A DNA stretch of 34,259 nt from a virus: IMG/VR virus record IMGVR_UViG_3300045391_000686. One strand, 5' to 3'. Positions 1,398 to 34,259 of this stretch are shown here, in pieces. Within the stretch, counting starts at the first letter, position 1; every line of letters starts with the position of its first letter. Made by a program: the position numbers and the translations under genes. The notes beneath the pieces were generated by a model. It was not told the origin of the DNA. It searched no databases and saw nothing but the letters and a program-made list of their open reading frames with translations.

Positions 1398-1440
1398 TGG
1401 TATCATAAGCATATGAACTAATGAAAGGAAAAATGACGAT

Positions 1441-2865
1441 ATGAGCTATCAACTACTACCGTTCAGACAATCACCAAACTACACGCCAGCTGGTCAAACA
1501 GCGGCTTTTTATGGTCGACCACGAATCATCACTGATGGTGCTGGTCACTGGTGGGATGCACCCGAAAGATTTCCGTCATTCGCTGGTGTAGTTGCCACGT
1601 TGATGAATCCAGCACGACAGGCATCAGCACAAGATGTCGTCGGTGACGGCGTTGTGCAGCCGCTAGTGCGCAAAGAAGACACTTCATGGGCAACAGGTGG
1701 TGCGAATCCATTCACATATTCAATTGAATGTGACCCACAAATCATCTACCGATGGCGTGCAGGCGGCGACAAAGCGAAAGCAAACCGCATCTTCGAAACA
1801 TTATGTGAACGCATCGCTGACGTGAACATGCACAACACACCATGGTCACCACATTGGCGCTGGATGACCACAGGATGCAACCCGATTGATTGGGCTGACG
1901 TCAACCGTCGTGCCAAGGAAATTTGGGCGCAGAAATACGGTTCACCAGTCACGCCACCACCAGCGCAAAGCGCCAACATCGTTTGGGAAAAGCTACCGAC
2001 ACCAGTTGCATACGTCACCAACAAGCAGCCGACAAAGCTTTGGAACTTCAATCAAACTGGTTGGGCTGGATTCGGCAACGGCGTTCGTGACTTCAACAAG
2101 GGTGAACAAATTGTCATCTATGGTCGTGCAATCAACAAGACGCTGAATGCGGTCTATCTGGTCACGCAGTACAGCTTCGAAAAGAAAATCACCAATGGCT
2201 TCAATGCCAACGATTTGACAGTCTACGTCGCACCAGCACCAGTGCCAGTGATACCAGAATGGCAACGCAACTTGAAAGACATCACGCCAGTGAAGCTGAT
2301 GGTTCTGACGGCACAGACGCCAGTTGTGAACTTGAACGATGGCACAGCCATCAAGCAACTTGGTCAAGGTACATGGATTGACTTCACCAAATCAACCGTC
2401 GTCGGCGGCATCGAATATCTGATTTCAAGCTATTCAGCAACCAACGCAATGGCAAACGGCGTGCGTCGTGCCGATGTCGGCGTGCCAGCTGAACCACCAG
2501 TCAATGAGAAACCAGAATGGCTGAAGAATTGGCAGGACATCACAGACGTGCCAATGTACGCAAGGGCAGACACCGACTTGGTGAATCTTGAAGACGGTTC
2601 GACCATCAAGGTGATTCCACGAGGTACGAAGCTTGATATTTCCAGCACGACAGAATGGCACGGTCACAAATATGCCATCACCGTATACAGCACCGACAAG
2701 AAGTTTGGTCAAGGTATTCGGCTTGATGACTTGGACATGAAACCAGTTGACGCCGATGGTGGCGATGTTGAACCAGCACCAACGCAGCCAACCATCGAAG
2801 AAAATGTGAACTGGTTGATGAAAGCCGTCAAAGCAATATTGGCTTTCTTAAAAATTAACGTATAG
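1441..2865 (+). CDS. Endolysin: N-acetylmuramoyl-L-alanine amidase (amidase_2/PGRP type) plus three SH3b-like wall-binding repeats
   Basis: 474 aa. The N-terminal ~170 aa are amidase_2-like (SPNYTP..., GHWWD, SAQDVV, TYSIECDPQ). A Pro-rich linker follows, then three ~80-aa repeats (KLWNFNQTG.., PVVNLNDGT.., DLVNLEDGS..) and a C-terminal amphipathic helix NWLMKAVKAILAFLKINV. Confidence 0.9.
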   Translation: MSYQLLPFRQSPNYTPAGQTAAFYGRPRIITDGAGHWWDAPERFPSFAGVVATLMNPARQASAQDVVGDGVVQPLVRKEDTSWATGGANPFTYSIECDPQIIYRWRAGGDKAKANRIFETLCERIADVNMHNTPWSPHWRWMTTGCNPIDWADVNRRAKEIWAQKYGSPVTPPPAQSANIVWEKLPTPVAYVTNKQPTKLWNFNQTGWAGFGNGVRDFNKGEQIVIYGRAINKTLNAVYLVTQYSFEKKITNGFNANDLTVYVAPAPVPVIPEWQRNLKDITPVKLMVLTAQTPVVNLNDGTAIKQLGQGTWIDFTKSTVVGGIEYLISSYSATNAMANGVRRADVGVPAEPPVNEKPEWLKNWQDITDVPMYARADTDLVNLEDGSTIKVIPRGTKLDISSTTEWHGHKYAITVYSTDKKFGQGIRLDDLDMKPVDADGGDVEPAPTQPTIEENVNWLMKAVKAILAFLKINV

Positions 2866-3318: not shown

Positions 3319-3338
3319 GTACCTATGTTATATTCACG

Positions 3339-3383
3339 AAAGTATAGAAAAGTATTGACAAAATGGCAAGAATGCGCTATACT
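3339..3383 (+). promoter_or_regulatory. Early promoter P1: tandem decamers AAAGTATAGA/AAAGTATTGA, -35 TTGACA (3355-3360), 17-nt spacer, -10 TATACT (3378-3383)
   Basis: Consensus sigma-70/sigma-A hexamers at the ideal spacing. It is one of four near-identical cassettes. Confidence 0.7.
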
Positions 3384-3521
3384 GTATACAGAATCGAAAA
3401 CAAAACAAAAACGATTCAAACACCTCTGGTTGTGATATACGCCGCACTGAACTTTCAAAAGCATCAGTCAATAAGTCGAACAAGCAACATTTTGACAGGG
3501 GTGTTTTTTCTTTGGTCAAGA

Positions 3522-3566
3522 AAAGTACAGAAAAGTATTGACAATTGTGGCACGGTCATATACAAT
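3522..3566 (+). promoter_or_regulatory. Early promoter P2: AAAGTACAGA/AAAGTATTGA, -35 TTGACA (3538-3543), 17-nt spacer, -10 TACAAT (3561-3566)
   Basis: Same cassette as P1, P3 and P4. The -10 lies 36 nt upstream of the first early ATG (3602). Confidence 0.8.
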
Positions 3567-3601
3567 TGAAATATCAACAAAGGAAAGGCACATTTGACGA
3601 T

Positions 3602-3802
3602 ATGCAAACCAACGAAGTACGAACCACCGAAGAAACAAAAGACTATGATTGCTTTACAGGCGGCATCATCACCAAGCATTGGGTCACATACCACTACCCA
3701 CGACCAGTGACTTTGGTTCACTACACAGCCACCAAGCACAACGGCGAAACTTCAAAGAAATATACCCGAATCGGCAACGCAACCAACTGGTTGGGCAAAT
3801 AA
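3602..3802 (+). CDS. Early hypothetical protein (66 aa)
   Basis: First cistron after P2. RBS aaaggaaagg, start context TTGACGATATG. Confidence 0.65.
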   Translation: MQTNEVRTTEETKDYDCFTGGIITKHWVTYHYPRPVTLVHYTATKHNGETSKKYTRIGNATNWLGK

Positions 3803-6234: not shown

Positions 6235-6441
6235 ATGGTTGAAAGCTTTGGGCGGTATGAAACAGCGTGCAAGGGCAAGCGAAAGTTTGCCACTGAATCA
6301 GACGCAGTTCGTGCCGCCAAAGAGTTGCGAAAGCGTGTTGGTGCAAGGGTCAAACCGTACCAGTGCCAACATTGCCAGCAATGGCACAACGGTCATTTTC
6401 GCAGAATAATCAAAGCGCTTCGACCTCTGACAGTTGAATGA
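6235..6441 (+). CDS. Early small protein with a CxxC...H zinc-ribbon-like C-terminus (68 aa)
   Basis: YQCQHCQQWHNGH motif. The start is uncertain: ATG 6235 or TTG 6211. Confidence 0.5.
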   Translation: MVESFGRYETACKGKRKFATESDAVRAAKELRKRVGARVKPYQCQHCQQWHNGHFRRIIKALRPLTVE

Positions 6442-6485
6442 AAGTATAGAAAAGTATTGACAATCATGACAATCTTTGCTACACT
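6441..6485 (+). promoter_or_regulatory. Promoter P3: AAAGTATAGA/AAAGTATTGA, -35 TTGACA (6457-6462), 17-nt spacer, TGn-extended -10 tgcTACACT (6480-6485)
   Basis: Third copy of the cassette. The leader carries GAAAGG and ATGACGATATG. Confidence 0.8.
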
Positions 6486-6522
6486 GAAAAGGTCAACAAA
6501 TAAAGAAAGGTCAAATGACGAT

Positions 6523-6756
6523 ATGACAAAAAAATCAACAACACCAACAACCGATGCAGCCGCATCAAACAAAAAGACAATGCCAGCCACACTGAAGACA
6601 GTTGTGACACTGGTTGAGGTAGTAGCACGCTTCTTGGCAGCATACCTTTTATTGAACAACTTCGACCACATCGTGGCAGTTGCAGCAGGATGGTATTTCC
6701 TGATAACCGCAGCCATGGCGTTCGTCGCACTAGTTCACAAAGCATCTAAAAACTAG
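6523..6756 (+). CDS. Small membrane protein (77 aa)
   Basis: First cistron after P3. Two hydrophobic helices VVTLVEVVARFLAAYLLL and VAVAAGWYFLITAAMAFVALV. Confidence 0.65.
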   Translation: MTKKSTTPTTDAAASNKKTMPATLKTVVTLVEVVARFLAAYLLLNNFDHIVAVAAGWYFLITAAMAFVALVHKASKN

Positions 6757-6810: not shown

Positions 6811-7494
6811 ATGGCGAAGACTGACGCCGCAACTGAAGCAAAAAAGCGCAAGACAGAATTGAAGTCACAGTTCGGTGAATTCATTCCAGAGGGCAACGAC
6901 CCTGAACAGCTATACAAGCAATGGGTTTCAGCACTGTTCGGAAAAGAAGAAACACCAGACGACGACATGCTATTTCGTGCGCTGACAATGGCAAAGCTTG
7001 CAGGAATCGACATTCGTGGCGGTTTGCTGTACATCAAAGACGGCAACGTCATCATCAACATCGACGGTCTTGTGGCTATTGCTGACAAAACTGGTCAATA
7101 TGGTGGCACGTCAAAAGTTGAATATCAATACGACGAAAACCAGAAAGCCAAATCGGTCATCGTTGGCATCTACAAAATCATTGGTGAACACGTTCTGACA
7201 CCAGAACAGATTGTCATGATGGATGAATACGACACTGGTGATGGCTTATGGGCTGACGCAAAGGACGGCGGCAAGAAGCTGTCAATGCTGAAGAAAGTCG
7301 GTTTGGCGCACGTCATTCGTGCATCATTCACCACTTGTGCTGGTCTGTACATACCTGAAGAAGTTTCGGGCGTTGCCAAAAAGAAAGTCGCAAAGACGCA
7401 ATCTGAAATGGAAACGAACATCACCAAGGCACTTGCGAAGAATCGCAAAAAGGGTCAATCTAATATTGAACCAACCAAAGCAAAGAAAGCATAG
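6811..7494 (+). CDS. Single-strand annealing protein, RecT/Red-beta superfamily (227 aa)
   Basis: The pattern ...AGIDIRGGLLYI..INIDGLVAIADKTG...MMDEY...W...KLSMLKKVGLAHVIRASF...LYIPEE matches RecT/Bet hallmarks (DG, MLxKxA..R.aF, EE). Confidence 0.8.
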   Translation: MAKTDAATEAKKRKTELKSQFGEFIPEGNDPEQLYKQWVSALFGKEETPDDDMLFRALTMAKLAGIDIRGGLLYIKDGNVIINIDGLVAIADKTGQYGGTSKVEYQYDENQKAKSVIVGIYKIIGEHVLTPEQIVMMDEYDTGDGLWADAKDGGKKLSMLKKVGLAHVIRASFTTCAGLYIPEEVSGVAKKKVAKTQSEMETNITKALAKNRKKGQSNIEPTKAKKA

Positions 7495-7499
7495 ACGAT

Positions 7500-8120
7500 A
7501 TGCAATACAACGTGAAGAACGACGGAAAGCTTCACACCCGATTCAGCGACCTGATGCGTGCAACACCACATCAAGTGGAAAACATCATCAAAGAACAGTT
7601 GGGTGAAAAAGAACGCTTCAAATCAGATGTCATGGACTTCGGCAGCATCCGTCATGACATGTGGGAAAAGGAATCGAAAGAAACAGGCATGTTGCCAGTG
7701 GTTTTTCGTGACGCATTTCCGCAATACAAAGATTTGCAAATCACACATGCTGAAAAAGAATTCGCAACCGAACTGTTCAAGAACATCGTGATTCACAGCC
7801 GACCAGACGGCGTGTCTGTACCATCAGCCATTGTGGTTGACTACAAGACCATGGTCAAAGGTGCAGGCGGCGCACGACGGTATGCCAGTTCGAAGCAATT
7901 GCCATTCTATTCATTCCAACTTGGCATTCACAACATACGCATCAAAAAATATGTGTATCTGGTTGAAATTTGGAACAAAGAATATACGGAAATTATCGGG
8001 TACGACTGTTTTGAAAAGACCGTCGGCTTGATTGATATTGCCGCCGCAAAGAAGTGGGCGCATGACCGCTGTGAAGTGCTTGCAATGGGCATGAAAATGG
8101 CAGGGTTGTGGAAAGGTTGA
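7500..8120 (+). CDS. PD-(D/E)xK exonuclease (RecB/Cas4/YqaJ-like), partner of the annealase (206 aa)
   Basis: GSIRHDMWE, then RPDGV....IVVDYKT (D...D-x-K motif), then QLPFY. It is adjacent to the RecT-like gene. Confidence 0.7.
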   Translation: MQYNVKNDGKLHTRFSDLMRATPHQVENIIKEQLGEKERFKSDVMDFGSIRHDMWEKESKETGMLPVVFRDAFPQYKDLQITHAEKEFATELFKNIVIHSRPDGVSVPSAIVVDYKTMVKGAGGARRYASSKQLPFYSFQLGIHNIRIKKYVYLVEIWNKEYTEIIGYDCFEKTVGLIDIAAAKKWAHDRCEVLAMGMKMAGLWKG

Positions 8121-8126
8121 CCGCTT

Positions 8127-8171
8127 AAAGTATAGAAAAGTATTGACAATTGAAACATGCTTTGCTACAAT
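8127..8171 (+). promoter_or_regulatory. Promoter P4: AAAGTATAGA/AAAGTATTGA, -35 TTGACA (8143-8148), 17-nt spacer, TGn-extended -10 tgcTACAAT (8166-8171)
   Basis: Fourth copy of the cassette. Its leader gaaatatcatcaaagaaagg is almost identical to the P2 leader. Confidence 0.8.
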
Positions 8172-8204
8172 AGAAATATCATCAAAGAAAGGATGAAAAA
8201 CGAT

Positions 8205-8807
8205 ATGCAAGAACAACCAAATCTGACACCAGTCAAACGACAGGTGACCACCATCAGCAATCAAGCTGGTGACCTGATGATTGATTCGCAAGAATCATTG
8301 TCACAAGCGACAGACATTCTGTCGAAAATCAAGACTTCAGCGAAAGACTTGAAGTCACGCAAAGAAGAAATCACCAACCCATTGAACGCAGCGCTGAAAT
8401 CAGCACGTTCATTGTTCAAGCCGCTTGAAGATGATTTGGCAACAGCCGAACGCACCATCAAAGGCAAAATTCTTGACTACTCAAATGAGGTTGAAGAAGA
8501 AGCACGCAAGAAAGCCGCAAAGCTTGAAGACCGTGTTGAACGTGGCACGATGCGCACCGACACAGCAATGCGCAAGATGGATGAAATCGAAACTGTCGGT
8601 TCATCTGTACAGGGCGCAAGCGGTTCAGTGCAATTCCGCATGGTACGCAATATCAAAATAGTAGACCCGACCAAGATTCCATTGAAGTATCTTTCAAACG
8701 AAAAAGTCTTGGCAGCAATCAGCGCAGCAGTTCGAACAGACGTTCTGAACGGCACAAAGGTCGATGGCGTTGAAATAGTCGAAGAAAAGCAAATTGCCGC
8801 ACGATAG
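8205..8807 (+). CDS. Siphovirus Gp157-like / DUF1351-like coiled-coil protein of the recombination module (200 aa)
   Basis: Long coiled-coil N-terminus, then the C-terminal pattern VQFRMVRNIKIVDPTKIPLKYL...VLNGTKVDGVEIVEEKQIAAR as in Gp157-type proteins. Assigned from memory of the family pattern only. Confidence 0.45.
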   Translation: MQEQPNLTPVKRQVTTISNQAGDLMIDSQESLSQATDILSKIKTSAKDLKSRKEEITNPLNAALKSARSLFKPLEDDLATAERTIKGKILDYSNEVEEEARKKAAKLEDRVERGTMRTDTAMRKMDEIETVGSSVQGASGSVQFRMVRNIKIVDPTKIPLKYLSNEKVLAAISAAVRTDVLNGTKVDGVEIVEEKQIAAR

Positions 8808-8824: not shown

Positions 8825-8929
8825 ATGATTCGCAAACGAAAAGTCGAACGTCGCAACAAGCTTGCACGAACGAAAAGAATCCAGAAATTGCAGCTGGTCG
8901 AACAGTTGCAGGAAGTGAAATTCGCATGA
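8825..8929 (+). CDS. Possible very basic mini-protein (34 aa)
   Basis: RBS aagggtgggaacATG. Its stop overlaps the next ATG (ATGA). The alternative reading is a TTG start at 8794 in the other frame. Confidence 0.35.
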   Translation: MIRKRKVERRNKLARTKRIQKLQLVEQLQEVKFA

Positions 8930-10688: not shown

Positions 10689-11314
10689 ATATTGACTATC
10701 GAAAAGTGATTTTGGCATTCATTGCAGCGGTCATCATTGCGATACCAACAGCAGCGGCATTCCAGAATCGAACCAACCAGATTGAAAGTGAACGGCAAGA
10801 CAAAAGCCGACTTCAGCTTGACGTGAAAAAGAAAGATTCTGAACTTGAAAAACTCAAGATTCAGACCAAAGAAAGCGAAGCCGAAAAGCTACGCATTCAA
10901 CAGGAAAACGAACAGCTGAAGAAAGATTTGCAAGCCAAACGTGAACGACAGGCTGAAGAACAGCGATTGGCGGCGGCGCAGGCATCGAAACCAGCCGCCG
11001 TTTCTGTTGGCATCAGTGGCAGTTGCGAATCATACCGACCATTGGTTCAAAAGTATTTCGGCGCAGCAACAGCGTCGGCAATGATAACCATGCAGAAAGA
11101 ATCGGGATGCAACCCGACAGCCGTGTCACCGACAAACGACCATGGATTGTTTCAGCTGAACGGTCAACCAGTATATGACCCCGAAGCCAACATTCGCATT
11201 GCATACGCCAAATTTGTGTCACCACGCCGTGGCACGAATCCAAACTGGTCGGCATGGTATGCGGTTTGTACACCCGACCTTGTGCCAAAGTATTCGGGCA
11301 TCTGGTGTTCGTAA
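10685..11314 (+). CDS. Membrane-anchored lytic transglycosylase (TM helix, coiled coil, SLT/lysozyme-like domain; 209 aa)
   Basis: TM helix VILAFIAAVIIAIPTAAAF, a heptad-rich region, then MQKESGCNPTAVSPTNDHGLFQLNG...IAYAKF (catalytic E-S and GLxQ motifs). Confidence 0.75.
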   Translation: MNIDYRKVILAFIAAVIIAIPTAAAFQNRTNQIESERQDKSRLQLDVKKKDSELEKLKIQTKESEAEKLRIQQENEQLKKDLQAKRERQAEEQRLAAAQASKPAAVSVGISGSCESYRPLVQKYFGAATASAMITMQKESGCNPTAVSPTNDHGLFQLNGQPVYDPEANIRIAYAKFVSPRRGTNPNWSAWYAVCTPDLVPKYSGIWCS

Positions 11315-11351
11315 ACATAAACAGATAGAATGGTTTCATGACGATAGAAAC

Positions 11352-11421
11352 GCCGACATCATTCCGACCTTTCACCCACTCGTGAATTGCATATCGTCAT
11401 TCGGAACTGGTGTCGGCTTTT
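11352..11421 (+). terminator. Two-tier hairpin plus T4 run; candidate intrinsic terminator or attenuator at the early/late boundary
   Basis: GCCGACA (11352-58) pairs with TGTCGGC (11411-17). TTCCGA (11362-67) pairs with TCGGAA (11401-06). TTTT follows at 11418-21. The apical loop is large (33 nt). Confidence 0.45.
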
Positions 11422-11441
11422 CTGTTGCCATCCGCAGCGTG

Positions 11442-11463
11442 AAAGTATAGAATAGTATCAGCA
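11442..11463 (+). repeat. Degenerate fifth copy of the promoter-cassette upstream element (AAAGTATAGA/ATAGTATCAG) lacking a TTGACA -35
   Basis: gaAAGTATAGAAtAGTATcAgCA compared with the consensus AAAGTATAGAAAAGTATTGACA. There is no -10 at the cassette distance. Confidence 0.6.
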
Positions 11464-11494
11464 TAGACGATATGCAGAAAGCGAGGGTATAAAA

Positions 11495-11791
11495 TTGAAA
11501 AACTTCTTCAAACGTAAACCGAAGCCGCAACCAGCTTCGAAAACTGTGCCGCTGAAAACGAAAGCGTCACCAAAAACCAAAGCAGCGATTGACTTCTTCA
11601 ACGACAAGAAATCAGCCGTCGACATGCTGGAAACAGACCGACGCCGCAAGTTCGTTCATAGTGGGTATACAAAGACGAAAGTCGACCACTTCTTTGAATG
11701 GGTAGAAAAGCAGCCATGGGGCATGTGGGCTGTGTATGCAGTAGCAACCGCATTCGTCGTTGCTGTCGCTTATTGGGGTATAAAGCAATGA
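11495..11791 (+). CDS. Tail-anchored membrane protein with a Lys/Pro-rich N-terminus (98 aa); first gene of the late operon
   Basis: TTG start 7 nt after gagggt. C-terminal TM helix WGMWAVYAVATAFVVAVAYWGI. Confidence 0.55.
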   Translation: MKNFFKRKPKPQPASKTVPLKTKASPKTKAAIDFFNDKKSAVDMLETDRRRKFVHSGYTKTKVDHFFEWVEKQPWGMWAVYAVATAFVVAVAYWGIKQ

Positions 11792-26305: not shown

Positions 26306-26322
26306 AAAGGTATCATGACGAT

Positions 26323-26712
26323 ATGACACAACAACCACAACAGGACGCAACATTTGACTTGGACTTGGACACTCTTGGGCAGTCCAAAAAGCGTGTGAAA
26401 ATCGGCGGCAGCGTCATCGAATTCGACCCACCATCATTGCAAGATTTGATTGAACTTGCCAAATTGGGCAGCAAGCTTCAAAAGATTCAGAACCAAGGTG
26501 ACAATGTAGACATCGACAATATGTCTTCAGTCATGGATGAATTATCAAATGGCTTGACCAACATCGTGCCAGAATTGAAAGAACACAAATTGAACATGGA
26601 ACAGCTTCTTGCGCTGATTGATTTGTTTGTACAATCGGCACAGCCGAACGACACCAAGGAACTTGAAAAGCGTGGCATCAAGCTTGACGGTGACCAAAAA
26701 AAAACGGCGTAA
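26323..26712 (+). CDS. Tail assembly chaperone (gpG-like; 129 aa)
   Basis: Lies immediately upstream of the tape measure, is acidic, and ends just after an A9 slippery run. Confidence 0.75.
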   Translation: MTQQPQQDATFDLDLDTLGQSKKRVKIGGSVIEFDPPSLQDLIELAKLGSKLQKIQNQGDNVDIDNMSSVMDELSNGLTNIVPELKEHKLNMEQLLALIDLFVQSAQPNDTKELEKRGIKLDGDQKKTA

Positions 26713-33753: not shown

Positions 33754-34259
33754 ATGGCATACACAGCATGGTCGGTTGTATACGGTGAACAGCCAACAGC
33801 CGCAAAATGGAATCAACTAGGCACAAACGATGCTGGATTCAAAGACGGCACAAACATCGACGACGATGCTATTCTTGCACGGCACATTGCTGACGGCGTA
33901 GTTGATGACGCACGATGGCGGAACAATGTCACATTCCGTGGCTATACTAGCACCAACCAAGCTGGTATCGGTGCAGGCGTATTCACAAAAATGACACAAG
34001 ATTTGGAAGAATGGGATACTGGAAACAATTTCAATCCGACACTTTCACGCTTCGTCGCACCATATAACGGTATCTATTATTTTGAGGGTGCGTTTTCCGT
34101 ACCAAACAATGATGTTCGTATTTTTGCCAGCTTATACAAGAACGGTGTTGAAGCATATCGTGCGACAAATGGCGCATACACTGGAAGTGCAAACCGTTCA
34201 ACTGGTGGTCGACAAATGAAGTTGGTCGCTGGTGACTACATCGAATTATACGGATGGCG
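33754..34259 (+). CDS. Tail fibre / receptor-binding protein with a C1q/TNF-like C-terminal domain; runs off the window end and finishes at 145 after circularisation
   Basis: The N-terminus MAYTAWSVVYGEQPTAAKWNQLGTNDAGFKDGTNIDDDAI is a common phage fibre N-terminus. The C-terminal FVAPYNGIYYFEGAF...LYKNG...GDYIELY resembles C1q-like jelly rolls. There is no stop before 34259. Confidence 0.7.
   Translation, partial: MAYTAWSVVYGEQPTAAKWNQLGTNDAGFKDGTNIDDDAILARHIADGVVDDARWRNNVTFRGYTSTNQAGIGAGVFTKMTQDLEEWDTGNNFNPTLSRFVAPYNGIYYFEGAFSVPNNDVRIFASLYKNGVEAYRATNGAYTGSANRSTGGRQMKLVAGDYIELYGW
34191..34259. repeat. Right copy of the 69-bp terminal direct repeat (identical to 1-69)
   Basis: Exact identity with 1-69. 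Confidence 0.95.

Follow-up and report, generated by a model that had tools for sequence, protein, structure and literature searches.

A conserved large-loop hairpin between two operons of an uncultured phage as a candidate antisense small RNA against the start-codon motif of the phage

The IMG/VR virus record IMGVR_UViG_3300045391_000686 is a viral DNA of 34,259 nucleotides, and this whole stretch is referred to below as the window. The subject of this report is the spacer at 11315–11494, which lies between the stop codon of a transglycosylase (SLT) gene at the end of one operon and the TTG start codon, at 11495, of the first gene of the next. On the plus strand the spacer holds a −10 box, a large GC-rich hairpin running into a U-tract, a promoter, and a short leader with a hairpin of its own (Table 1). 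The loop of the large hairpin carries the reverse complement of a motif that recurs at start codons of the phage's genes, and direct copies of this motif stand before the hairpin and in the leader. An earlier note, made from the letters of the window alone, took the arrangement for a conditional terminator or, at the DNA level, for a pair of operator half-sites. We consider it probable, with some reserve, that 11338–11424 is a gene for a regulatory small RNA of about 85 nt, which also serves as the terminator of the upstream operon and whose loop is antisense to the phage's start-codon motif. The element thus looks more like a translational regulator than like a switch between terminator and antiterminator.

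Relatives were gathered from uncultured-virus and metagenome collections by way of protein searches, pattern searches, transglycosylase homologs and contig look-ups; their loci carry L numbers here, as does the unrelated Mycobacterium phage Adephagia (JF704105; L037). The transglycosylase search gave 127 homologs, many on contigs of 33–36 kb, and 19 distinct versions of the region were recovered from related uncultured phages. In all of these the order transglycosylase, element, small membrane protein, glycosyltransferase and methyltransferase is kept. Transglycosylase identity falls to 42–48% and the downstream protein is strongly diverged, yet the core of the element is unchanged. Since the first search pattern fixed both arms, the pattern matches say nothing about how well the 5′ motif copy is conserved; the matches found through proteins (L024, L030–L033, L035, L036 and L061–L063) are unbiased, and they revealed that the 5′ copy is not universal. 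No GenBank phage gave a nucleotide match, the best terminase match there has 28% identity, and no cultured relative was found. Among the transglycosylase homologs, L003, L028 and L029 have no evident element downstream of the SLT gene and L034 has none in its flanking intergenic sequence, and the four were left aside as too distant or unrelated. L009/L011, L017 and L019 were set aside as chance pattern matches. The endolysins of the relatives include a GH25 plus LysM protein (L036, 1643–2791), a GH25 protein (L062, 487–1449) and an Amidase_2 protein (L032, 1514–2545). These endolysin types, together with GAAAGG Shine-Dalgarno sequences and TTG start codons, hint at a Gram-positive host.

Taken by itself the element 11338–11424 folds at −32.2 kcal/mol with a z-score of −5.8, while the whole spacer (11315–11500) reaches only z = −2.3. 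The two-tier hairpin of the earlier note, in which GCCGACA (11352–58) pairs with TGTCGGC (11411–17) and TTCCGA (11362–67) with TCGGAA (11401–06) ahead of TTTT (11418–21), is borne out, but it is not the whole structure, which also has a base formed of an A-tract and a U-tract and an inner hairpin (11371–75/11382–86). In the closer set of relatives 32 pairs could be scored, with 99.3% of the cells paired and double-sided changes in 6 of the pairs; slid controls gave 31–45% paired and no pair with double-sided changes. In the wider set RNAalifold found compensatory changes in four of the five proximal pairs. One topology is kept across 16 variants despite eight unrelated outer-stem sequences, the compensatory variants including GCCUGUCCGA/UCGGACAGGC, GCCAGCCCGA/UCGGGUUGGC and GACCCACCGA/UCGGUGGGUC. 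Pairing of the inner hairpin is likewise kept, in the stem variants UUCAAC/GUUGAA, UUUGC/GCAAA and UUAC/GUAA. The hairpin that closes the upstream operon, with the U-tract after it, is real and covaries. Inside its loop, at 11388–11400, lies the inverted motif copy TGCATATCGTCAT, just where it had been described. The exposed segment has a mean unpaired probability of 0.87–0.96 in each of the 16 variants, and its core, CAUAUCGUCA, is identical in all relatives, those retrieved by protein only included. Short open reading frames (ORFs) within the element are not conserved among the relatives. Rfam gave no match on the window at the gathering threshold, and at E ≤ 10 the region 11200–11600 matched only a miRNA precursor and a snoRNA family, which are unrelated and far below their gathering scores.

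The GC-rich stem and adjoining U-tract of an intrinsic terminator are present, and the stem covaries: in the window UGUCGGC is followed by UUUUCUGUU, and in the class 2 relatives a 10-bp stem is followed by UUUUUUGUU. The loop, however, measures 33 nt and holds an inner hairpin, as against the usual 3–8 nt, and a consensus terminator scan did not report the element. In L024, L030, L031 and L033 a canonical terminator of its own (for example GGUGAAguaaUUCGCC-U7) comes after the loop hairpin, and in L061 a separate terminator was seen by eye only. Several relatives thus have a two-hairpin architecture, the seed hairpin with separate terminator that is classical for small RNAs. A −10 hexamer (TAGAAT, TAAAAT, TACAAT, TATAAT or TAAACT) precedes the structured RNA by 6 nt, once 7, in 16 of 16 variants, while the spacer and the sequence upstream of the box vary freely; a terminator is present in all variants, and the putative small-RNA promoter so marked has no recognisable −35.

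In another explanation the start motif pairs with a host RNA (such as rRNA) or binds a protein, and the loop imitates that host RNA or, were the minus strand transcribed, displays a sense copy of the motif as a decoy. The A-tract/U-tract base could indeed terminate transcription in both directions, and the conserved CCUUU beside the loop may resemble the 3′ tail of 16S rRNA. In the vicinity the minus strand showed neither genes nor a promoter, the separate terminators of L024, L030, L031 and L033 face the plus-strand direction only, and CCUUU is accounted for as the 5′ strand of the inner hairpin, so that we regard a mimic or decoy as very improbable. As the main explanation an anti-Shine-Dalgarno role of the conserved CCUUU(C) was rejected on the same structural ground, and also because CCUUU lies 5′ of the seed, the wrong position for collinear pairing with a Shine-Dalgarno sequence plus start codon.

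According to the earlier note, helices alternative to the terminator stem, flipped by a factor, would gate the read-through of early transcription into the next operon. All the arms for this exist. The 5′ copy ATGACGATA lies at 11338–46 as stated there, its 9-bp helix with the loop is the minimum free energy structure of a nascent RNA reaching 11400 or 11410 (−11.3 kcal/mol), before the 3′ arm is made, and the copy occurs together with an integrated terminator (in the window-type and class 2 variants, L035, L036, L062 and L063). Once the hairpin is complete the full fold of −32.2 kcal/mol faces −15.4 kcal/mol for the forced 9-bp alternative, a gap of 17 kcal/mol. The second proposed helix, of 11 bp with 11466–76, cannot decide termination in cis since its partner is transcribed 45 nt past the termination point; in a read-through RNA its fold (−44.8 kcal/mol) also loses to that of terminator plus leader hairpin (−46.9 kcal/mol). 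The 5′ arm is absent from six relatives (L024, L030, L031, L032, L033 and L061), and four relatives have their separate terminator beyond the influence of the loop. The arms of the alternative helices are invariant and hence show no covariation, and the sole informative change, G>A with C>U in L005, favours a local hairpin in the leader. That the alternative helices exclude the stem holds for nested folds, but a pseudoknot in which the 9-bp helix might coexist with the lower terminator stem is sterically conceivable. A conserved conditional terminator is not supported by these results, and we hold this account to be quite unlikely, although a modulating role of the 5′ copy in the subclade of the window is possible.

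The operon downstream, moreover, should not depend on read-through, because it has a full predicted promoter of its own, which is conserved. The sequence AAAGTATAGAATAGTAT at 11442–58 had been described as half a promoter cassette that has lost its −35. We predict instead that it is the −10 region of a complete sigma-70-type promoter, with TTGCCA at 11425–30 placed 17 nt upstream of TAGAAT at 11448–53. In the relatives the corresponding boxes are TTGCCA, TTGCAT or TTGACG, 16–17 nt, and TAGAAT, TAAAAT or TATAAT; three relatives have TGgTAAACT, which gives a start on the same A. The transcript would open with a small hairpin whose arms vary and still pair (ACAUA/UAUGU, AUAUC/GAUAU, ACAUAU/AUAUGU, GUCAU/AUGAC and GCAU/AUGC). 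The direct motif copy GACGATATGCA was found at 11466–76, as reported, where it heads ATG CAG AAA GCG AGG GTA TAA (MQKARV*). A mini-ORF reading of the leader was rejected, its length and frame differing in every relative; in L005 it is reduced to a start-stop, and in L024 it is fused in frame.

The 11-mer GACGATATGCA has four exact copies and one copy with a single mismatch in the window; the mean in shuffled sequence is 0.99, and none of 100 shuffles reached five. Its 8-mer core ACGATATG occurs eight times on the plus strand against 0.67 expected. In seven of these eight the ATG is the start codon of a gene (at 1441, 3602, 6523, 7500, 8205, 19334, the portal gene, and 26323), which bears out the association with starts; the eighth is the leader site, at 11472. 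The only other copies in the window are the reverse copy in the hairpin loop and one at 34161 on the minus strand. The 11-mer is an extended version of a more general start-associated module, which typically consists of the Shine-Dalgarno sequence GAAAGG, 4–5 nt, and [A/T]TGACGAT-ATG; the motif proper spans −8 to +3/+7 of the start codon. The seed core CAUAUCGUCA is the exact complement of [A/T]TGACGAT-ATG. Seed matches of 11–13 nt at start codons in the window form duplexes of −15 to −21 kcal/mol, and matches in relatives reach 14–15 nt, as at the orthologs of the 7500 gene in L021 and L035. The direct and inverted copies noticed earlier are thus real, conserved and non-random.

Matches of at least 9 nt to each genome's own seed, counted over 13 genome pieces, number 62 in the sense and 6 in the antisense orientation (p = 8e-13). 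In 42 of the 62 sense matches the ATG opens an ORF of 40 codons or more, and most of the others are 5′ copies and leader copies. Four transitions in the target copies keep G-U pairing with the seed: C>U in L005, A>G and C>U in L030, and C>U at site 6879 of L032. If the motif consisted of operator half-sites for a phage or host protein, the inverted pair 11388–98/11466–76 would bracket the late promoter, and it does flank the promoter at 11425–53; several copies also lie 5–30 nt past a predicted transcription start. The distance between the two inverted copies, however, is 65 nt in the window and about 85–105 nt in L024 and L031, and the reverse copy is in every case part of the unpaired loop of an RNA hairpin that covaries. 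The strand bias, the fixed start-codon register, the G-U-compatible transitions and the variable spacing argue for RNA–RNA pairing and against a DNA operator, which seems to us very unlikely. Pairing at the RNA level is the best reading of the direct and inverted copies; the observation of the earlier note is confirmed and its interpretation partly supported.

A purely cis-acting element would be only a terminator and 3′-end stabiliser, the loop pairing within its own transcript with the start at 8200–8210 or with the leader of a read-through RNA, and no action in trans. The first gene of the operon, that starting at 8205, does carry the motif wherever its ortholog was identified in the relatives examined, and the minimum free energy fold of 11315–11500 can pair the loop with the leader. 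This account leaves aside the −10 box that all 16 variants keep 6 nt (once 7) ahead of the structured RNA, as well as the two-hairpin architecture of several relatives, and most of the motif copies lie in other transcription units, namely after the promoters 3538 and 6457 and in the late region. We therefore think it unlikely.

The antisense small RNA is further favoured by co-variation between seed and targets. Two seed alleles occur, ..UUG|CAUAUCGUCA|U and ..GGU|CAUAUCGUCA|AC. With the UUG allele (9 genomes) CA follows the ATG at 25 of 51 motif starts, and with the GGU allele (3 genomes) at none of 15 (Fisher p = 4.6e-4); the dinucleotide [AG][CT], predicted by the GGU seed, follows at 10 of 15 starts as compared with 15 of 51 for the UUG allele (p = 0.015). 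The leader copy switches with the seed allele, from ATG-CA to ATG-[AG]C. A 16-mer scan for the second allele returned 17 chance matches and one known contig. In two phages with this allele a gene for a KH_KhpA-B domain protein lies two genes upstream of the transglycosylase (L031, 7415–7681; L061, 8847–9101), and in the window no gene of this kind was recognised. In Gram-positive bacteria KhpA/B bind small RNAs.

Several points weigh against an antisense small RNA. The counts for the two alleles are phylogenetically non-independent, and the two alleles may go back to no more than one or two events in evolution. An RNAduplex scan of the whole window in 30-nt windows gave 25 sense and 19 antisense peaks at or below −14 kcal/mol; the top matches are motif sites, and the scan was not used as evidence. 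Since energy at so weak a threshold fails to separate the strands, the regulon is defined by the exact motif and not by energy. The genes with the motif include late ones (in endolysin position, portal and tail region) as well as early ones, and a simple logic of shutting off early genes therefore misfits. The primary role of the motif may be in translation, where at several sites it forms a mini-ORF overlapping the real ATG, with no need of a small RNA. The promoter of the small RNA, having no −35, may be weak or factor-dependent. Lastly, the leader of L030 and L033 keeps its hairpin with only 8 Watson-Crick and 2 wobble pairs to the seed, so that the leader hairpin may be selected for its own sake.

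If the antisense reading is right, the small RNA would be made from its own −10-only promoter, with a start at A11338, and also as the 3′ end of transcripts of the upstream operon, and it would end in the U-tract at about 11421–24. The long outer stem would present a large loop containing the inner hairpin and the unpaired 14-nt segment UUGCAUAUCGUCAU, which would pair over 10–15 bp with the start motif of seven or more genes of the window and also with the 5′ hairpin of the leader of the next operon (start at about 11460). What the computational comparison of sequences and structures shows is the fold with its covariation, the exposed invariant loop, the signals for promoter and terminator, and targets that are strand-specific, locked to start codons and co-variant in their flanks; from this we infer that the RNA accumulates and that it pairs with these sites in vivo. 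Pairing would control ribosome access or mRNA stability, and its likeliest outcome would be repression through a blocked start codon. The targets would include the leader of the following operon and the first gene of the RNA's own operon; the presence of the motif in that gene wherever identified suggests feedback.

Table 1. Features of the spacer and predicted target sites in the window (RNA and DNA letters as in the analysis)
Feature	Position	Strand	Basis or remark
−10 box TAGAAT of predicted small-RNA promoter	11326..11331	+	6 nt before first base of structured RNA; no recognisable −35
Predicted small RNA, ~85 nt: hairpin/terminator displaying antisense loop	11338..11424	+	fold, covariation, common topology
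5′ motif copy AUGACGAUA	11338..11346	+	single-stranded in mature fold; unpaired probability ~1.0 for 11338–44
Outer (terminator) stem, 5′ arm	11345..11367	+	pairs with 11401–11424
Inner hairpin UUCAC-loop-GUGAA	11371..11386	+	pairs 11371–75/11382–86
Exposed 14-nt antisense segment (seed) UUGCAUAUCGUCAU	11387..11400	+	unpaired; core CAUAUCGUCA
Outer stem, 3′ arm, and U-tract UUUUCUG	11401..11424	+	sequence, fold, covariation
Predicted downstream-operon promoter TTGCCA-17 nt-TAGAAT	11425..11453	+	10/12 consensus matches; predicted start A11460
5′-terminal leader hairpin GCAUA-GACGA-UAUGC (11461–75) with motif copy GACGAUAUGCA (11466–76)	11461..11476	+	fold, compensatory arms
Shine-Dalgarno GAGGG and TTG start of first gene of downstream operon (98 aa, C-terminal membrane helix)	11483..11497	+	
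Predicted target ATGACGATATG, start 1441 of 474-aa gene	1433..1443	+	11-nt exact seed complement
Predicted target TGACGATATGCAA, start 3602, first gene after early promoter 3538	3595..3607	+	13 nt, −20.0 kcal/mol
Predicted target ATGACGATATG, start 6523, first gene after promoter 6457	6515..6525	+	11 nt, −16.8 kcal/mol
Predicted target GACGATATGCAAT, start 7500 of 206-aa YqaJ-like gene	7494..7506	+	13 nt, −20.6 kcal/mol
Predicted target ACGATATGCAA, start 8205, first gene of the operon ending with the small RNA	8200..8210	+	11 nt
Weak predicted target ACGATATG, portal start 19334	19329..19336	+	8 nt only; conserved in L062, L063
Predicted target ATGACGATATG, start 26323 of 129-aa late gene	26315..26325	+	11 nt, −15.8 kcal/mol

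The c4 RNA of phages P1 and P7 is processed by RNase P, it heads the operon it controls, and on either side of it, within the same region, there are complementary copies. Mechanistically c4 and the CI RNA of P4 are the closest known systems, the likeness being that of a loop displaying an antisense to a ribosome-binding region. c4 has been described as a small structured phage RNA whose antisense loops pair with the ribosome-binding region of a phage mRNA (PMC12197685). The predicted RNA has no homology to c4 or CI in sequence or structure (there was no Rfam C4 match at the gathering threshold or at E ≤ 10), and unlike c4 it has its own −10 box and terminator. Its predicted target is a start motif repeated across many genes, whereas that of c4 is one operon, and there is no sign here of an immunity or antirepressor function, no integrase or repressor having been seen. 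It would thus be a phage antisense RNA of a known kind, but one directed at a multi-gene start motif. To our knowledge, the known phage antisense RNAs (c4, CI, sar and OOP) each control one locus. An RNA with a loop that fits a motif common to the start codons of many phage genes would differ from them, since through it a phage could govern a set of early, lysis and structural genes, together with the leader of the next operon, from one post-transcriptional point.

Small RNAs of the DapZ type, derived from a 3′-UTR, are transcribed from a promoter at the very end of the upstream gene; they share the terminator of the operon and have a conserved single-stranded seed just ahead of the terminator structure or within it. 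The element resembles this class in the placement of its predicted promoter, its common terminator and a seed near the terminator, and differs from it in being phage-encoded, in having the seed inside the large loop of the terminator in most variants, and in its predicted targets, which are the phage's own starts. With attenuators of the riboswitch, T-box or leader-peptide kind it shares a GC-rich hairpin with a U-tract and an upstream segment able to form a competing nascent helix; in contrast to them, the arm that would compete is missing from some relatives, the other lies past the termination point, and there is neither an evident ligand or sensor domain nor an Rfam match.

In design the closest system is that of the start-associated sequences (SAS) of Cluster K mycobacteriophages, with a start-locked motif and a lone reverse copy in a conserved hairpin loop. 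The SAS are short asymmetric motifs at a subset of translation starts, with a single reverse copy and a function that is not known (PMC3203893, PMC11373665); Pope et al. (2011), who described them, asked whether they are recognised by RNA or protein, and their function in Cluster K has been open since. Adephagia has 16 sense copies and one reverse copy. We observed that a strong hairpin in the gap between gp92 and gp93 (L037 38655–38720; about 58,654–58,719 of the record) has the reverse copy in its apical loop of 10 nt, CCUCCUAUCC. This loop hairpin is kept in 126 mycobacteriophage records, with a compensatory G-C to A-U change, and Ekdilam has the variant loop CCUCCUUCCCC. In the Cluster K SAS literature examined, we did not find a report of the reverse copy lying in a hairpin loop. 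The SAS is a 13-nt motif, GGGATAGGAGCCC, which stands 3–9 nt upstream of the ATG and contains the Shine-Dalgarno sequence, whereas the motif of the window is unrelated to it and spans the start codon; phage lineage and host are unrelated too. What the two systems have in common is design and not descent. We offer only tentatively, and think it rather less likely than its opposite, the generalisation that phage SAS are target sites of a dedicated antisense small RNA controlling a genome-wide set of genes, a design that would have arisen independently here and in Cluster K. The loop in Adephagia makes the RNA hypothesis for SAS testable in a cultivable system with existing RNA-seq. In annotation work, a terminator hairpin whose conserved loop is unusually large merits re-inspection as a possible small-RNA gene.

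Some minor observations concern the motif genes and the promoters. The starts at 1433–1444, 6515–6526 and 26315–26326 read ATG ACG ATA TGA, a mini-ORF of three codons at optimal Shine-Dalgarno distance whose stop codon overlaps the real ATG (ATGA), and the translation of these genes may use termination-reinitiation coupling. The sets of genes with the motif differ between close relatives: the start at 8927 in the window is without it, and the ortholog of that gene in L001 (1241–1255) has the longest match found, 15 nt, ATGACGATATGCAAT.

A 17-nt block, AAAGTATAGAA[A/T]AGTAT, occurs at 3338–3354, 3521–3537, 6440–6456, 8128–8144 and 11442–11458. It stands just upstream of the −35 at four strong early promoters and overlaps the −10 at the downstream ("late") promoter, and a factor bound to it would be positioned to activate the early promoters and to block the late one. 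In three relatives AAAGTATGGTAAACTAT replaces the block at the late promoter. In the segment 3355–3512, some 120 nt that lack any plausible ORF come after a consensus promoter (TTGACA-17-TATACT), together with a long-range stem, AACACCUCUG/CAGGGGUGUU, and U6. This segment, which folds at −26 kcal/mol (z = −2.3), is a second candidate for a small RNA with a large-looped terminator.

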